A stretch of DNA of 61,986 bases, filler included. It is 10 parts of 10 records of this genome, joined end to end, with 100 filler letters (N's around TTAATTAATTAA, not from the genome) between each part and the next. Parts side by side here need not be neighbours in the genome. Positions count along the whole stretch, not along the records: positions 20,599 to 27,352 come from SRR7504441_5253; 9 more parts are not named here. One strand, given 5' to 3'. Below, piece after piece: positions 6,039 through 56,558 of this stretch (positions within the stretch are counted from its first letter, which is position 1; each line of letters begins with the position of its first letter). The position numbers were made by a program, and so were the translations under genes. Below the pieces are notes generated by a model that was not told the DNA's origin, made no database searches, and was given only the letters and a program-made list of their open reading frames with translations.

Positions 6039-6138
6039 NNNNNNNNNNNNNNNNNNNNNNNNNNNNNNNNNNNNNNNNNNNNTTAATTAATTAANNNNNN
6101 NNNNNNNNNNNNNNNNNNNNNNNNNNNNNNNNNNNNNN
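6039..6138. other. artificial contig spacer (also 11251-11350, 20499-20598, 27353-27452, 30995-31094, 37345-37444, 43940-44039, 48633-48732, 56459-56558)
   Basis: Identical 100-bp N44-TTAATTAATTAA-N44 linkers with stops in all six frames. Confidence 0.99.
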
Positions 6139-11135: not shown

Positions 11136-11350
11136 AGCGGTCTAGATTGAGTTCTCTAATGCCGTTAGAGATCTGCCCTACCGTAGTACTTGAAGCGGTA
11201 GACCGGATCGAGGCTAGGAGGCATAGATGTGTAGCCCGGTAGCTCGGTCANNNNNNNNNNNNNNNNNNNNNNNNNNNNNNNNNNNNNNNNNNNNTTAATT
11301 AATTAANNNNNNNNNNNNNNNNNNNNNNNNNNNNNNNNNNNNNNNNNNNN

Positions 11351-20127: not shown

Positions 20128-20598
20128 CAGCAGCTCGCCGTCTTGCGCTTTGCTGCTTGTGAGGGCTGCCGATGGGAGGAGAGTGGCTGGCTGCTGGCTG
20201 CACACTGGCCGTGGGCTCTCTGCTAACGGGGCATCTCCTTTTACGCAACACGCATGCGCCCACGAGCGCGCGCTGGCTGCCTCGGGGTTTTTGACCTCGC
20301 CCGGAGACTCTGAGACAGACCGGCCAGACCGGCCACGCAAAAGACTCACGGACTCAAGGCGCTGGCAATGCAAAGGAAGGCTGAGTGCTGAGCTCAATTT
20401 AGTAACTCAACAACGAGTGAGCCTCACTAACTAAAGGAGAGCTCTGCGCAATGCACGGCCGGACAATAGTGAGTAAACTAGTCAACACACTATGTATTNN
20501 NNNNNNNNNNNNNNNNNNNNNNNNNNNNNNNNNNNNNNNNNNTTAATTAATTAANNNNNNNNNNNNNNNNNNNNNNNNNNNNNNNNNNNNNNNNNNNN

Positions 20599-21431
20599 TA
20601 CTCCTTCCGATTTTGGCACATAATCACATTCTTCACAGCATCATCGCATGGTCCCTTGACCGAGTCTATGGAGGCATCAGGGCTGTCCCCCTCTGGAGGG
20701 TACCCTGCACGTACTACCGACTTTTTCAACGGCATCCACGAAACTAGCTCCCCGGTCAACATGGTGAGCCCGCTCAATCCTGGGACGTCACTACCAGGAG
20801 TTGTCCTCGCAGCTTCTCTGAGGCCTGTGATAGAAGCCCAGTACAGATCTGTCCAGTTGTCTAGAAGCCCCTCAGTCTCGTCAGGAATACTGGAGTGTAA
20901 TATGGCAAACCATGTTTCTTCAAGAGTGGGTCTCTTGTCTGGTGGGCTTCGGGTCCAATCTTCAGGAGGAAAACTGGCCTTTCCGAGTCTTGTGAACGTC
21001 CTGCAGGCGGCACTCAGGCCGGAGACGGACTGCGAGCTCACCCGTCCTCGACAAAGTGCATATTGTATGCGACAGCACAGTAGAAATCAACCAACCGCTT
21101 TGAGTCAGCATAGTCAGGCTGCTCACCAGCAATGATCGCTTCAACGATTGAGCGCTGGACGGTGTGCAGGGCGCTTTGCGGAGACCTACTCTCCACAGCT
21201 GCCGGGGCCGGAGACGAGCCGTTGTGGGTGGCCACCACCTGCAGGCGGCACTCAAGCCGGGGGACGGACCACGAGCTTACGACCAGAGCGACGGCAAGCC
21301 CCGCCACCAGGAATCCCATGATCACGGCCGGCCAGCTCCACGACTCCTCCCAGTCGCCTTCAGGAGCGGCCGGCGCCTCGACGTCCGCCCCCGCCGGCAG
21401 CAATGGCGTCGCCAATTCAGTCGCAGCCATT
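20599..21431 (-). CDS. hypothetical protein with N-terminal TM; spliced, 3' truncated
   Basis: TM segment PAVIMGFLVAGLAVALVV; frames continue across short introns to the contig end. Confidence 0.45.
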
Positions 21432-21732
21432 GATGCAGCGACAGCGGCCTGGCCGATTGCAGGGTCAGTGCTGAATACTACCCGCACCGCGGCACCGCGA
21501 CTGGCCACTACGGAAGAGGCACAGAACGAGTGTCACATAGGAGTAGGTTGGAGATCATCCGTTGATGCATTTGCATCAAAATCCTCTGTCTTGAAGGGTA
21601 CTTAAAGGGTACTCGTACGGTAACTCATACAATCGTAATTATCGACCAACAGCATCGAAAACCAACCGTTCTACGTTTCGGTCATAATTGTCGATCGATT
21701 ATACCGAATATACAGTACATGTACTGTACGCT

Positions 21733-24700
21733 TTAGTATTCTTCGATTGCGAGTCCACTTTGATCAGATCTGCATCCGATTCTAAGTCCGTCATATACGA
21801 TCATCCAGCAATCATGATTGTACCAGTGGTGGACTAAATATCGTTCAAATGCACTTCTAATTCTTCGCCGCCATGTCCCGGGAGCCATGAGCCTATGACT
21901 TTGCCCATTGCTGTGCCCCAAGATCATCAGTCATTGCATATAACCTAAAAGGCCACCAAAATTGATGAGTCGCTGAGCAAACTACGAATGCTTTCAGCAT
22001 CCTGCCACGGGCCCAATGTTATTGTTGGGTTGTCACAATGGGTAAAGCGAGCTTCTTGCCTGGTTCAATGTCGCATGCGGACAGATGTCCTCGCCAATTT
22101 TGTCAACACTTGGATCCCTCGGGATGCCATGGTACAGCAGCAACGTCATCAAGCGATCCAGATGGTCAAACGGAAACCAAACCTGCATCAGATTTGAACA
22201 CACAATGACTTGCCACGGCACAGCCCACCTTGGCCATTGGGTGTAATTCGCTCGGGTTATTGCGTTGGTGAGTGGTTGCATTCTGATGGGCTCTCAGGGC
22301 GTCCTGAACTAGAATTGCTGCCTGTGGACAAGGTTGCTGAGCACATCATATTAAGCTGTGGTCACCTCGTGTAGAAGAGAAGGGGTGTGGTGTTTGACTG
22401 CTAACATGATGACAGTTGTCAACAAAGACATTCCGAGCAGCCCACTTTTCTCAAAAAAGTTGACATGCACTCCTACCGCCAGGGAGTCGTCTTCTGGAAG
22501 GCTGTGCTCAATCTCGAGGCCTAGGCTGCACTCGATACAACTGCGCAATAATAGTGCGTTAAGGCCAGACACATATCACTGATGGCACCTCCTGAAGCTG
22601 TGAAGGAGGATGACAGGGAACCCAAGCCGGCTATCCTCGCAAAGTATTTGATCAAGCACAGCTTTGTGCAGTTCAAAGCTTGGACTCCTGCCATTTATAC
22701 TCTCGTGTTGCTGGTCGTGCTCTATCAGCAGCCGGCATAGCAACTTCCATTCGTCAGTATCGCGGACTAGACTTGCTCGTGCTGTGTTGACGGCCGATGC
22801 GACTCGCTTTGGGGCCTGCTCCATAATGGATCGCGCACCGCGCATGTGTGACTGGATGCAGTCAGAGGCAAGTTGCTCAAAGATGGGAATCAAACTCATG
22901 TCATAGATCGCACAGAGCTCAGCAGCTGGCTCATACAATGCACACTGCAGGAGCTTGTTCACGATCTCTTGCACTTCTGAGCACGGTGGTGGCAGCACTG
23001 CAGCATGTCGCTCTGCACTGGCATGCACGGACTTGCGTGCTAATGCCACGTAAGCCCTGGTCACAGCACACCACTGTTCCACCTGCTTGCTTGCCATGAC
23101 TACTCGAGCCTTGTGCTCCAAATTTGCATCTGACGAGACCTCTGCCTCTGATTCCTCCCCTGGAACAAGCACCGCAATGAGGCAGTGTGAGGCAGCACAG
23201 GCTATCATACCATTTCGCTTGCGCTTGTTCACAACAGGCATTTCGCGATAATCACACAAGATGTATCGTCCCCCATTCTCAGCGCCAGACAAACTGCTCG
23301 AGTGGCTCACTGGCTTGACTAGTTGAAGCGCATTAGCTGCCGCTGCATAGCTACTCGCCTGCTGCTCCAGCGCCTCCAGCGAATTCTTATTGTTTGATTG
23401 AGTCAACCTCTGTGCTTTTTCCAGGGCAGCAGCTGCCACACTGCGATACATATTGCGCGAGCTCAGGTAGGCGTGTAGCACATCGTAGTAGCTTAGGTCG
23501 TGATGCCTGGCTTCCTCCCATAGTACCGACTCCACCTCTACTTCCAGCCCAATCAAAGGTACCAAACAGAGTGCCTCGATATCCCTCACACAGCTTCTGA
23601 TTGGCACAAGTGCCTTTACCAGCTGCCTCACAGCTGTCTTGCGATGAGAGGCCGGGAGTCGATGTAGACTGGCTACCACCTGGTCAAGCACCGCTTGGCT
23701 CCGTGGCGGACTCTCCTGCAGCAACCAATCAGAAACCATAGCTGCGGCCTACATACCCGCAGTTTCTCGAGAGATGCTCGGAAGAGCATCTGAAGCATCT
23801 GATCCCGAGCATCCTGCACAGATATGGCGCTAGATTCACCATCATCTGCGTCCATTTCGTCCGTGTCCATTCCTTGCATACTGCTACACTGTTCAATTGC
23901 TGACAATGCAGCGTACGAGAGCTCAATCACACCGTCCCACGCTTTGCTCCGTTGCACCAGCTCAATCACACCCCTTCCTGCATTCATGAAGTATGAGTAC
24001 ATGCTTTCCCATGTAGGGCTCTGGCTGCTCACTGCCCTAGCACACCAAAGCTCGCGTAACAATTCAGAAGTAGGAACTGCCACAGGAGCTGCAGCTAAGA
24101 AGTACTCACTGGCCTGGCTGAACAAATGCTGAGCACCAGTTGCGCGGGCGGAGGAGTGCACTCGCAGCTCCAGCACCTTGGAGGTCTGAAGCAGGGTGGT
24201 GAGCTGGTTGGTGCTCATTGTAGCCACATTGATACCATTCACCAGCATTATGATATCGCCTATCCTCAGTTGGTCGCTTTGTCCAGCGACACTGTCCTCT
24301 TCCATCCCAACAATGATCAGACCATCAGACGACCCATGAAGCATCAGCCCAAGAACCTCCGAACCCTCGGTTTTCTCCAACACAACTGTCTCCATGGCGC
24401 TGTCATTCCGCTGGTCATGATGTACAGATGCCTTTTCATTCTCGCCCATCTGCAAACAGCTGCAGCCGCGGAGATACATTAGGGCCGGTGTGTCTGCTTG
24501 GTCACCAAGATGCTTGAACAAAGCCTCAAGTGTGCGATGCTCACTATGTTGATGCAGGAACTGGCAAAGTTTCACAGTCTCATCCCGCTGCCCGTGCCGC
24601 TCTAAGCAAGATACTGTCATGATTGCTGTAAGTGAGACAGCGGCTAGGGCAACTGCTGGTACCCCCTGAAGCTCACTTGCAGTGCTCAGCTCCTCGCGGT

Positions 24701-27272
24701 GCACATCTAAATAGAGCGCCATCACCGACTGTTCACACATGGACCCACTCTGTCCACGCGCATGAGCTGCGCTTTCGCTCAGGATCGCCATGCTCCGTTC
24801 AGGCTCGAGGTGGGTCCGTCCCAGCAGCGGCTGCAGCGCCAGCCAGTTTGCGACAAACAGTGCCTTGAAGAGCCTCATCACCTCAACCAGCAGTTGCTTG
24901 GCCCGACCAGCGTACCCGGCGCAATGGGGAATACAGCCCAAGTAAGACAGTTCGTCAGAGTGTACGTTGGGCAGCACGACAAATGTGAGCAGCATAGCCA
25001 GGCGCTTGACCAATTCCAGTCGCTCATAAAGTAGACTCCGCGCCAGCCTAATCACAAGAGTGTCAGGTGCCACCCACTGCCTCGAGGCTGGAGAAGGCTC
25101 ACTTGCAGGCATCCGGCTCAGTCCAGCCGTCAGCTGCTTAATGCTGTCAAGGAAGGATGCAAACCCATCAGCAGCTTGTGGTGCCACAGGGAACTGATCA
25201 ATCAAATGCACAAGCTCGAGTCTGGCTTCAAGGCTCATTTGCTTGAGCAGCAACTGGTGTATGTCGTGCAGCATGGGCGGTTGGTTGATCTTGAACCCCT
25301 CTAGTTCGCCCATTTTGCCTAGCAATAGCTGCAGGTGTCTGCTGGGCTCGCTGTCCATTGGACTTGGAGAACATGAGATTGAAGAGACATCCAGCAACAA
25401 GCTGACTGCATGCCTCCGGATCACCATTAATGAGTCTGGCTGTCCGGACTGACAGGCCACTGAGAGCGCCACTGGGCCGCACAGCTCAGCACTTGCCTCC
25501 CGCGTGTACACTGCCAGCTTGGTCGCAATCTCAATTTGACGCTCTGCATTGGCCCAAGTAAGAAGGCTGAGAACAGCACGAGCGATCTCGTGTGGCTGTG
25601 GAGTTTCAGGGAGCTGTGGCGTAGACACGGCCTCGTTCTGCAGCCGGATTAGTGCTTTGTGCAGAGGCAGCATCTGTGATGGTCCACAGCCAAGCCCGAG
25701 CAGTGCAGCTGCAACCCCAGCTGCAACGGCAGACCTGTATGCAGTAGGATCCGAACGGATCGAATCGCAGGTAGCAGGGTCGCCCTGGAGCTGGCAGCCA
25801 GTATCTGAGATATCCAAGCACCAACCAGGCTGAACAAGCACACTCATGATCTCTCTAGTCTGCTCAGGCAGAACGTCGTCCAAGAATAACCCCATCTCAA
25901 CTAAACCAATAGCACGCCACTCGTGCCCCTGTTGGGCCACAGTATGACAGCTGGCCTGCCAATGCGCTGTGCTAGTGGACTGCAACTCGACCAGCACGCA
26001 CTGCATAGCCGTGGTGAGCATGACCGCAGATTCGTCATTTTGGTCCACCTCTGGCACCTGTGTCGAATCGACCAGCATCATCAACCTGTTCTGGCACGGG
26101 TCCACTTCGTAATGTACCAGCTGCCCGGCCGCCGCGTCCAATCTCTCCATCGGATTCCAGCACTCGGGCTCCGCCCCCCAGCGACACGATCCATCCCGTT
26201 GGGGCATCACCTGGCCAGAAGCTCAGCAGCAGCTGGTGGGTAAGGCGGCCTGGTGGGCGTAGACGCAGTACGAACCCTGAGTGGCCATGCCGATCATGAG
26301 CCGCACTGGTTGGTGGGCCTCCTGTGAGCCTGCCAGGATGTTCCCACAGCTGGGCACCTGCAGCTGCGCTCAGCCAAATCTAGGCACTAGGCACCAGGTC
26401 CATTGGCTGCGTGATCGGCCTGTGCGGGCCCGTGACTGAGACCTCGTAGCACTGTCCTCGTGACCACAGCCGCAGCATGTGGTCGGTGCATGCTCCGATG
26501 ACGCTCCATACTACCCCCAGCTCCGCCTCCTGAGCACAGACCAGATGCAGACTGCAGATTTCGAACCCGGTCGAGGCGCCGCCCCACAGGCTCTTGACTG
26601 GAGTTAGGATCCGGCCCACCATACCGTGCACTGCAGTGACTTCATGCGGCTCGTACCCAGGCTCGACTCGCCAACACTTTCCCCCGGGCGCTCCGATCGC
26701 CGTGCACAGACTACTGCCCTGGGTGGTCTCGCACAGATCGCACCCAAACGCGACAGCCTGTGGGACGTGGAAGTTCAACTGCTCGGTGTGCGGCTGGACT
26801 GCATCGTCGAAGAAGGAGCCCAGCTGCGGCGGCTTGCGCCAGGTCACCCGAAAGATGCCCCCCCGGCTGGCAGTCGCGCACACGAAAGTGAGCATGTCAG
26901 GGTCGTGACAGAACAGCCGCCCCCCGGGGAGCAGGTTCCCGCCAAAGCATAGCAGCGTGCCTCGTCCGCCCGGGCTGCACCCAGTCTCGGCCAGCCGCAC
27001 CTGCCCGGCGTTCGACCGGCGGGTGGGGCGCGGGGCTGCCTGCGAGCCGGTAACCATAAAGAACCAGCGGCGGTCGGTGACGCCCTGACTGGCGCCCTGC
27101 AATTGACAGTCTCGACCGGCGTACGCATACGGCGCTGCGGCCCGGCTCGCAAGCAGCCGGGCTGAGGGTGGCGGGCACCTGAGTCGTCGTCGTCGATGTT
27201 CTGCGGGCCTATGTGCTCCACTCTCCATTGGTCGCTGTGCAGCTCGAAGTACGGTACCTCCAGCAGCGCCAT
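21733..27272 (-). CDS. NUP160: nucleoporin Nup160/Nup120 with internal PDZ insertion; multi-intron, ends approximate
   Basis: YYDVLHAYLSSRNMYRSVA..LEQQASSYAAAANALQLV, LIPIFEQLASDC and WFPFDHLDRL resemble Nup160 C-terminal segments; N-terminal beta-rich region (CTDHMLRLWS). Confidence 0.8.
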
Positions 27273-27616
27273 TCGGGCACGGCTCGAAGCAACCCGCTCG
27301 CGCTCGGTGCGCCGCCCCGGCTCGGGCCTTTCGTAAGCCTCGCTGTTGTTGTNNNNNNNNNNNNNNNNNNNNNNNNNNNNNNNNNNNNNNNNNNNNTTAA
27401 TTAATTAANNNNNNNNNNNNNNNNNNNNNNNNNNNNNNNNNNNNNNNNNNNNGCGAAGAACTGATCGAAATCGTCGTCCATCGCTCCGGCGGACAGGAGC
27501 GGTGCCCTGGAGGTGAGTGCCGTTTCGACCGTTGGCTTGCCGCCCCTACCGTCCCTACTACCTGGTAGAGCCCTCCGAGCAGAGCACCCGCAAGAGGCGC
27601 TCCGCGGCTCGCGGGG

Positions 27617-30994: not shown

Positions 30995-31235
30995 NNNNNN
31001 NNNNNNNNNNNNNNNNNNNNNNNNNNNNNNNNNNNNNNTTAATTAATTAANNNNNNNNNNNNNNNNNNNNNNNNNNNNNNNNNNNNNNNNNNNNACAGTA
31101 ATTACATTGTAATGTAATGAGCCTTGGCTGTAATGCCAACCTTGGCCACATTCAGTCATTTGCCGCTTCTGATGATGCGAGTATTATTTATTCCGGCCCG
31201 GGGCGGCGCCCGGCAACAGCAGACAGGAGTGACGC

Positions 31236-37301: not shown

Positions 37302-37696
37302 CTCTTTGGACACGAAGTGATTGGCACTGTACATAACAAAGCTGNNNNNNNNNNNNNNNNNNNNNNNNNNNNNNNNNNNNNNNNNNNNTTAATTAATTAA
37401 NNNNNNNNNNNNNNNNNNNNNNNNNNNNNNNNNNNNNNNNNNNNCAGTTGACGATCTCGAGAAAATACATAATTATGATTTTTTAAGTTCAAAGTTCGAA
37501 TTCAAGAGTCGTCTGTAGATGGTCTATAGAGTCGTCCGTTTACAATCACGACAATCATAGTGCCAACTTTTGCATACTTCCAGTGACGCCTGGCCGCGCA
37601 ATGCGATCTAGGCTTAAAAAAGCAGCAATTCTCATTCAACCGGTAGCCATTGACACAAACGACACAATTCTGGGCGTGTAGTGCTGTGCTAGTTTG

Positions 37697-43937: not shown

Positions 43938-44039
43938 CGNNNNNNNNNNNNNNNNNNNNNNNNNNNNNNNNNNNNNNNNNNNNTTAATTAATTAANNNNN
44001 NNNNNNNNNNNNNNNNNNNNNNNNNNNNNNNNNNNNNNN

Positions 44040-48632: not shown

Positions 48633-49030
48633 NNNNNNNNNNNNNNNNNNNNNNNNNNNNNNNNNNNNNNNNNNNNTTAATTAATTAANNNNNNNNNNNN
48701 NNNNNNNNNNNNNNNNNNNNNNNNNNNNNNNNGCGATCCGTCCTCCGAGGGACGGGCAGGCGGTGCGCAAAGAACTGCGATCGGCTCAGGGCCGTCGCAA
48801 AGTGCCGTAGTGGCCGGCGTGTACGCCAGTCCAAGAGCGCCCACCCCCTCAGGAGGGGCAGGCTGGGGAGCGGCCACAGCGGCGGTCAGGCCGTCTGGGG
48901 CAGCGCAAGTCGCGGGGAAGGACCATGTAGTTGCAAATCGTTGCAAATGTAAATGACTCGGTCTGCGCATATGGGGCAGAAAAGCAAATTTGATCAGAAA
49001 CGTACTACTGTATTCCATATTGCACCCCTA

Positions 49031-56363: not shown

Positions 56364-56558
56364 GAGGCGCGAGATGCAGCTTCGTTAAAAGTACGGATTC
56401 TTTGTCCCGGCAGATAAAAGAATACGTGCACGTTCAAATAATTCACTGTCCCGAGCTCNNNNNNNNNNNNNNNNNNNNNNNNNNNNNNNNNNNNNNNNNN
56501 NNTTAATTAATTAANNNNNNNNNNNNNNNNNNNNNNNNNNNNNNNNNNNNNNNNNNNN

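Follow-up and report, generated by a model that had tools for sequence, protein, structure and literature searches.

Can the scaffold of the nuclear pore take up a modular domain of the signalling type, and is such a domain a permanent part of the protein or an optional piece which is spliced in and out? The question is raised by a gene for a homologue of the nucleoporin Nup160 (Nup120 in yeast) which encodes a PDZ domain within one long exon. It lies on the minus strand of a single 6754-nt contig (20599-27352) in a window of 61,986 nt, i.e., the whole stretch of DNA analysed here, in which ten short contigs are separated by spacers (N44-TTAATTAATTAA-N44); features cannot be read across these spacers. 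Y-complex nucleoporins, consisting of propeller and solenoid, are among the most architecturally conserved of eukaryotic proteins. To our knowledge added globular domains are rare in them. An earlier note on this DNA had singled out a 318-nt segment coding for the PDZ domain, and had considered it as a spliced insertion. The evidence given below makes it highly probable that the PDZ domain in Nup160 is a real, conserved and constitutive insertion. Apparently the domain belongs to the protein permanently, rather than being spliced in as an option. As the best overall explanation we favor, as likely, a constitutive peptide-docking module on the arm of the Y complex.

The PDZ segment and its host protein

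The 318-nt segment is in frame and free of stops, and its translation agrees with the peptide quoted in the earlier note. The PDZ family of Pfam, PF00595, matches segment residues 16-90 (24386-24162) at E 1.2e-8 with 35.6 bits, compared to a gathering cut-off of 23.2. The letters described for the borders are likewise in place, i.e., AAG ahead of GCATCT at one end and ...TTCAGCCAG ahead of GCC at the other. Folded by AlphaFold2 on an alignment of 18 rows (A3), the segment attained a mean predicted local distance difference test (pLDDT) of 83.7, with 72 residues at or above 90 and low confidence in the first 12 and the last 14 residues. Strands are predicted at segment residues 13-19, 29-33, 38-43, 60-64, and 86-92, helices at 48-52 and 74-83. 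A Foldseek search against the PDB returned at least 500 matches at E<=0.001; all among the matches listed are PDZ domains, with a probability of 1.00, a template-modelling score normalised to the target of up to 0.83 and a root-mean-square deviation of 1.5-2.5 Å over 81-87 columns. Highest in the list are structures which contain a C-terminal peptide together with the PDZ domain, i.e., those of LNX1, PSD-95 (PDZ3), CASK, and PALS1. The carboxylate-binding loop of PDZ domains has a hydrophobic-Gly-hydrophobic motif at the start of strand B. This motif is LGL in all four orthologous sequences, and Gly28 of the segment is kept in 18/18 aligned PDZ domains.

With canonical PDZ scaffolds (GRIP1, INADL/MPDZ, PSD-95, ZO-1, LNX, and CASK) the domain shares the fold, the LGL loop, and the GD..NG motifs. 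The order of strands is not that of the permuted, bacterial HtrA-type domains, and the best matches are multi-PDZ proteins of animals and choanoflagellates. By sequence, the nearest solved domains are those of GRIP1 (2qt5, E 9.5e-7), InaD-like (6ird, E 2e-6), PSD-95, and ZO-1. A Ser or Thr at the position aligned with the first residue of helix alpha-B (alpha-B1) distinguishes it from these scaffolds. So does the setting: in canonical scaffolds the PDZ domains are beads on a string in membrane-associated proteins, whereas here a single PDZ domain is embedded in an alpha-solenoid. The G+C content at third codon positions (GC3) is 0.623 in the segment, the sliding mean of the exon being 0.593 with a standard deviation of 0.052; the composition of the PDZ domain is native to its exon.

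The model of the host gene was derived by tblastn of two full-length relatives, P0038 and P0040, on the contig, and the DNA was read at each alignment break. The spliced model aligns end-to-end with P0038 (residues 3-1639 to 6-1657, 44.9% identity) and with P0040 (1-1639 to 1-1725, 50.0% identity). Two Nup160 families of Pfam are recognized in it, TPR_NUP160_120_M (PF23354; E 6.5e-17, 62.2 bits, cut-off 27.2) and TPR_Nup160_C (PF23347; E 1.2e-10, 41.6 bits, cut-off 27.1). HEAT_Nup120 (PF23300), just before the PDZ domain, scores 24.4 bits, below its cut-off of 29. The same Nup160 families are found in P0038 and P0040. A family profile built on alignment A1 matched the solved chains of human NUP160 (5a9q/7r5j, E 1.9e-25), of Xenopus Nup160 (7vci, 7vop, and 6lk8, E 5.8e-21 to 1.1e-20), of a further Nup160 entry, 9hcj (E 1.3e-9), and of a Nup120 fragment (4ycz, E 3.2e-5); 9sob, another such Nup160 entry, was matched as well. 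Each of these chains gave one significant C-terminal stretch, and none matched the PDZ part of the profile. For the N-terminal propeller, Pfam gave no family at E<=0.01 in the full-length P0038 and P0040, and a local match of a '..LRxWS' stretch to human residues 298-315 is insignificant (score -1.7).

The protein thus resembles Nup160/Nup120, the short-arm subunit of the Nup107-160 Y complex, in its Pfam families, its homology to solved chains, its total length of 1643 aa, and a C-terminal two-thirds made up entirely of helices. It is unlike them in that a PDZ domain of ~80 residues is present ~130 profile positions upstream of the part which can be aligned to human residues ~1020-1315. In a marine protist related to Telonema, the host gene is probably that for Nup160 (Nup120 in yeast) of the Y complex in the outer ring of the pore. 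A true PDZ domain is contained in a true Nup160 homologue.

Relatives and the age of the insertion

The long open frame around the segment (P0001, 849 codons, 26222-23673, minus strand), which contains 24431-24114, was compared exhaustively by phmmer with 1.84 billion representative proteins at E<=0.001. Of 34 proteins recovered, five are Nup160-like (P0004, P0005, P0006, P0011, P0024) and 29 match the PDZ domain only. EukProt is the source of P0004 and of P0038, a full-length protein of 1664 aa in the same cluster; both are Trinity transcripts and represent one gene as its isoforms i4 and i8, respectively. Metagenomes of the Joint Genome Institute (JGI) supplied P0005 and P0039, Logan supplied P0040 (1730 aa). 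In the alignment, P0038, P0039, and P0040 carry a PDZ domain at the same site of Nup160, and all three exceed the Pfam cut-off of 23.2 bits (P0038 31.8, P0040 31.7, P0039 30.2 bits).

Identities of the window protein to these three orthologues are 36, 49, and 49% in the PDZ core, 37, 50, and 50% in the helices on its N-terminal flank, and 47, 55, and 50% on the C-terminal flank. By these figures the PDZ domain and the surrounding scaffold evolve at one rate and are equally constrained. L185, G186, L187, and L189 (the LGL motif) as well as G216, D217, N223, and G224 are invariant in 4/4 sequences. The linkers are kept in length (13-14 and 16-17 aa), their identity to the window being 14-21% for the shorter and 19-44% for the longer one. 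The four PDZ-bearing sources are 38-69% identical in pairwise comparisons. A PDZ domain at one and the same site, with conservation shared among four lineages, shows that the insertion is older than the divergence of the lineages sampled.

A different picture emerges with P0006, a metagenome protein of 1460 aa. It is a more distant Nup160 homologue with the same Nup160 Pfam families, in which neither Pfam nor the alignment finds a PDZ domain. It is 33% identical to the window protein over the C-terminal 650 residues and 25% in further stretches. Where the window protein has 94 residues (model 888-981), P0006 has about 20 (745-764), i.e., only ~74 residues are extra in the window according to BLAST. 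The stretch shared with P0006 restarts at model residue 982, and the 3' border of the 318-nt segment (model 1000) follows 19 residues later. From this alignment the true insertion is therefore ~74-80 residues long and corresponds to the PDZ domain itself. The claim in the earlier note that removal of the entire segment leaves a continuous helical repeat does not survive this comparison: the 19 residues with which the segment ends (model 982-1000) lie in a stretch homologous to a protein without PDZ. The distribution also indicates that the insertion is lineage-specific.

Only one of the relatives bears a species name, the fragment P0024 from Telonema subtile. It sets in directly behind the PDZ site, and a PDZ domain is predicted for the part of the protein ahead of it; its identity amounts to 66% with P0038, 57% with P0040, and 56% with the window model. 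The nearest proteins among the PDZ-only matches are multi-PDZ scaffolds from a choanoflagellate, a sponge, a jellyfish, and lampreys, in addition to metagenome proteins. All 29 match at E>=3e-9, and the ten best are 28-31% identical; because identity does not exceed 31% among these ten, a recent donor is not in evidence. Exon shuffling, one of the readings in the earlier note, is a conceivable origin of the domain, though neither an intron at its borders in the window nor a close donor PDZ points to it. Word-based homologue searches returned nothing with the window protein, only P0040 with P0039, and only P0004 with P0038 in the 'shorter' setting. Scans of metagenome contigs with alignment A2 and with P0039 confirmed no relative. 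The best score in the ESM Atlas was 0.83, for TPR or unnamed clusters (scores below 0.9 are leads only), and no cluster there joined PDZ and Nup160 families.

A separate detail concerns P0039 and P0040. Behind a conserved 'YSYY' both have 13 extra residues (columns ~1376-1388 of alignment A1), for which neither the window nor the Trinity transcript nor P0006 has a counterpart. They may represent a 39-nt in-frame mini-intron missed by gene prediction. If so, both sequences are derived from genomic DNA, likewise without an intron next to the PDZ domain.

Splice signals, introns and contig evidence

Is the PDZ segment spliced? The nine introns inferred for the gene set the standard. From the 5' end they are 44, 39, 37, 39, 41, 48, 44, 46, and 58 nt long; 9/9 are preceded by G, 9/9 end in CAG, 7/9 are in phase 0, and 3/9 are of the GC-AG type. 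No intron flanks the PDZ domain in the window: it is contained in exon 5, which is bounded by a 39-nt GC-AG intron upstream and a 41-nt GT-AG intron downstream. The former is the best-supported GC-AG intron of the gene; it must be removed because its in-frame TGA would break the homology. Another 39-nt GC-AG intron (27039-27001) is in frame and stop-free, its basis being homology alone. Gene prediction in this group has to reckon with such tiny introns and with the high share of the GC-AG type, since a mini-intron which stays in frame is easily mistaken for coding sequence.

The earlier note had stated that phase-0 splice signals lie exactly at the PDZ borders. The letters are there; their significance is another matter. 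Of the 822 codons of exon 5, 145 have GT or GC as their first two letters and 91 have AG as their last two, which yields 2661 phase-0 pairs of GY..AG (Y, pyrimidine) of 30-600 nt. A chance test was carried out by sliding a 75-codon window along the 822 codons and accepting a pair within 20 codons on each side. A loose phase-0 GY..AG pair brackets 608 of the 697 windows (87%), and a strict pair, AG/GY..YAG/G with slashes at the cuts, brackets 48 (7%). The exons of the gene contain 500 GY..CAG strings of 37-58 nt, and nine of them have the strict intron-like form. Because 500 such strings occur in exons, they carry little information. The nine strict strings, G/GT[GA] or G/GC[AC] .. CAG/G, of which four are in frame, imply that intron recognition must use more than these signals.

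Two further strings within the segment, a 42-nt GC..AG (24431-24390) and a 48-nt GT..AG (24161-24114), had been proposed as introns on either side of a PDZ exon. Both exist as letters. The proposal itself is not supported: contigs from RNA libraries retain both, and the signals are unlike those of 9/9 inferred introns. The 42-nt candidate has the acceptor GAG/A, and the donor of the 48-nt candidate is preceded by A. Counterparts of 13-14 aa and 16-17 aa, respectively, are present in 3/3 orthologues, for the former with the Trinity transcript included, and the 48-nt candidate lies partly inside the BLAST stretch common with the PDZ-less P0006.

Logan contigs from three RNA libraries (X1 to X3) and one DNA run (X4) were aligned on 21500-27300; stretches 21500-23633 and 24798-26543 are without contig cover. 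No spliced joint was found in these contigs of the four runs. An RNA-library contig of X1 (24319-24538) spans 24431, covering 113 letters on one side and 107 on the other, and retains the whole 42-nt candidate. A second one (24088-24286) retains the whole 48-nt candidate and has only 26 letters beyond 24114, a border which is also spanned by a DNA contig of X4 (23995-24302). Both Trinity isoforms, i4 (P0004) and i8 (P0038), contain the PDZ domain and both linkers. One RNA contig of X2 ends at 23759, 2 nt from the exon end, and one of X3 at 24430; these are single contigs of 151 nt and were left uncounted. The seawater RNA-library contigs differ from the window at 24369, 24396, 24422, 24629, 24550, and 26713, and thus derive from a close strain. 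Three of these changes (24369, 24396, 24422) are within the segment in the X1 contig; as we read the frame, two are synonymous, and the third replaces a His in the linker by Tyr, the residue in 3/3 orthologues.

Would an exitron or cassette exon nevertheless account for the locus? In that case either the sites AAG/GC..CAG/G (318 nt) or those of the 42-nt and 48-nt strings would be spliced, and PDZ-minus or linker-minus isoforms would exist alongside the PDZ-plus protein. The gene is not hostile to such a scheme: GC-AG introns are real in it, one with an in-frame stop, phase 0 prevails, both small candidates fall into the range of 37-58 nt, and strict pairs around the PDZ are found for the mentioned minority of slid windows. 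The X3 contig ends beside the proposed donor, which, as one contig, is a weak hint at most. All this is outweighed. A 318-nt intron would be more than five times as long as the longest inferred one and far outside the range of 37-58 nt, the small candidates lack the G and the CAG common to all nine introns, and intron-like strings abound in exons. No joint is seen in four runs, RNA-library contigs run through both small candidates and across 24431, the orthologues, including two Trinity isoforms that are both PDZ-plus, keep the PDZ domain and linkers of the same length, and excision would cut a helix common with the PDZ-less P0006. Hence PDZ-plus and PDZ-minus isoforms, as envisaged in the earlier note, find no backing here, and we regard an exitron or cassette as very unlikely. 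Still less credible, and to our mind practically negligible, is an artefact, i.e., the fusion of a PDZ gene to Nup160 by an erroneous gene model or in a chimeric contig of the metagenome. The window indeed consists of short contigs joined by spacers, and the genome is apparently a metagenome-derived assembly (marine metagenome runs). However, independent DNA and RNA-library contigs span both borders, which also disposes of the chimeric assembly considered in the earlier note, the frame is unbroken for 822 codons, GC3 of the PDZ domain is native, and the same architecture recurs in three other sources at 38-49% identity. A mis-assembly shared by all is excluded by the pairwise identities of the four sources.

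Table 1. Features of the Nup160 contig and of the joined window; positions count along the window.
Feature	Position	Strand	Remarks
318-nt segment, 106 aa, model residues 895-1000	24114..24431	-	N-linker, PDZ, start of next helix
PDZ fold proper, segment residues 13-92, LGL carboxylate-binding-loop motif included	24156..24395	-	AlphaFold2, Foldseek
Proposed 42-nt 'GC-AG intron'	24390..24431	-	read as coding N-linker, 14 aa
Proposed 48-nt 'GT-AG intron'	24114..24161	-	read as coding PDZ end and start of next helix, 16 aa
Nup160/Nup120-homologue gene, complete	21945..27272	-	10 exons, 1643 aa, homology-guided model
Exon 5, long exon, 2454 nt	23757..26210	-	open frame; holds PDZ, no intron either side
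Introns	27178-27135, 27039-27001, 26394-26358, 26249-26211, 23756-23716	-	homology-inferred
Introns, rest	22588-22541, 22365-22322, 22228-22183, 22059-22002	-	homology-inferred
39-nt GC-AG intron with in-frame TGA	26211..26249	-	removal restores alignment to P0038 and P0040
41-nt GT-AG intron (GTATGT..TGCAG), phase 0, first downstream of PDZ	23716..23756	-	P0001/P0002 frame change, homology continues
Strict intron-like exonic strings	26333-26277, 26318-26277, 26129-26086, 26124-26086, 25821-25785	-	
Strict intron-like exonic strings, rest	24035-23978, 23562-23507, 23210-23160, 23094-23057	-	
Contig spacer N44-TTAATTAATTAA-N44	27353..27452	.	upstream contig end; twin at 20499-20598 is the other end
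N44-TTAATTAATTAA-N44 spacers	6039-6138, 11251-11350, 20499-20598, 27353-27452, 30995-31094		
N44-TTAATTAATTAA-N44 spacers, further	37345-37444, 43940-44039, 48633-48732, 56459-56558		

Downstream of the Nup160 gene (20599-21900) other open frames are present, e.g., one of 164 aa at 21532-21041 on the minus strand which contains a hydrophobic stretch.

Peptide docking and its meaning

What might a constitutive PDZ domain do in Nup160? A complete PDZ domain of canonical type, ~80 residues long and joined by short linkers, lies ~900 residues from the start of the protein (1643 aa), where it separates two helices of the alpha-solenoid. In the explanation we favor, the arm of Nup160 would display it as a module for the docking of peptides. 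Its groove is predicted to dock the short C-terminal tail or a beta-hairpin motif of a partner, conceivably another pore protein or a protein of the nuclear envelope, and docking would tether this partner to every Y complex of the pore. That a partner peptide is actually bound in the PDZ groove is a putative function to which we give an even chance at best.

Several points weigh against a constitutive docking module. The RNA evidence is thin: it consists of contigs, not reads, at a depth of 2-8.5, and none crosses a verified intron, so that the RNA-library contigs could be DNA or pre-mRNA; a minor PDZ-minus isoform may exist. No more than five sequences cover the site, four with and one without a PDZ domain. 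Many class I PDZ domains have a His at the first position of helix alpha-B. The residue aligned with it here is Ser or Thr in 4/4 sequences, and the PDZ domain may therefore belong to this or to another ligand class. Finally, a 383-aa model of the PDZ domain in its helical context is poor (pLDDT 49.8), and only its secondary structure was used; in this low-confidence model both borders of the 318-nt segment are inside helices. Display from a loop is, as a consequence, a statement about secondary structure only.

On the level of mechanism the main rival is a purely structural role. A constitutive PDZ domain might bind no peptide and serve as a structural spacer, or as a surface for contacts within the molecule or between Y complexes. 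The Ser/Thr at alpha-B1, where many class I domains have His, would agree with this, as would the loss in P0039 of a basic residue upstream of the carboxylate-binding loop. Nup160 itself offers no conserved C-terminus resembling a PDZ ligand: the C-termini of the four sequences differ, and for this reason self-binding of the PDZ domain to the Nup160 tail is unlikely. On the other hand, the LGL motif, which forms the groove, and the GD..NG core do not vary among the four sequences, and the fold, predicted with high confidence, can be superposed on PDZ domains with bound ligand at 1.5-2.5 Å. Conservation equal to that of the scaffold fits any function and separates neither possibility. On balance we consider a PDZ domain without peptide binding improbable, although distinctly less so than an exitron, and prefer the docking module.

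In the literature, as far as the titles and abstract openings among the papers listed go, no PDZ-bearing Nup160 or Nup120 was found, in agreement with the earlier note, to whose author none was known; the same titles and abstract openings contained nothing on the composition of the telonemid pore. One may go a step further and envisage a telonemid coat nucleoporin turned adaptor, in which each Y complex would present a working PDZ groove to capture the tail of a lineage-specific partner. Candidates would be a membrane nucleoporin, a lamina-like or chromatin protein, or a transport factor. We rate this as a real possibility which falls a little short of being probable. If true, a domain of signalling-type scaffolds would be wired directly into the outer ring, Nup160 would be the first scaffold nucleoporin known with a PDZ domain, and the domain would offer natural access to hitherto unknown components of the pore in an orphan phylum of eukaryotes.

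A conserved PDZ domain in Nup160 of a deep-branching, little-studied lineage means that the pore scaffold can acquire a modular peptide-docking domain. It also provides a concrete bait for lineage-specific partners at the pore or in the nuclear envelope.

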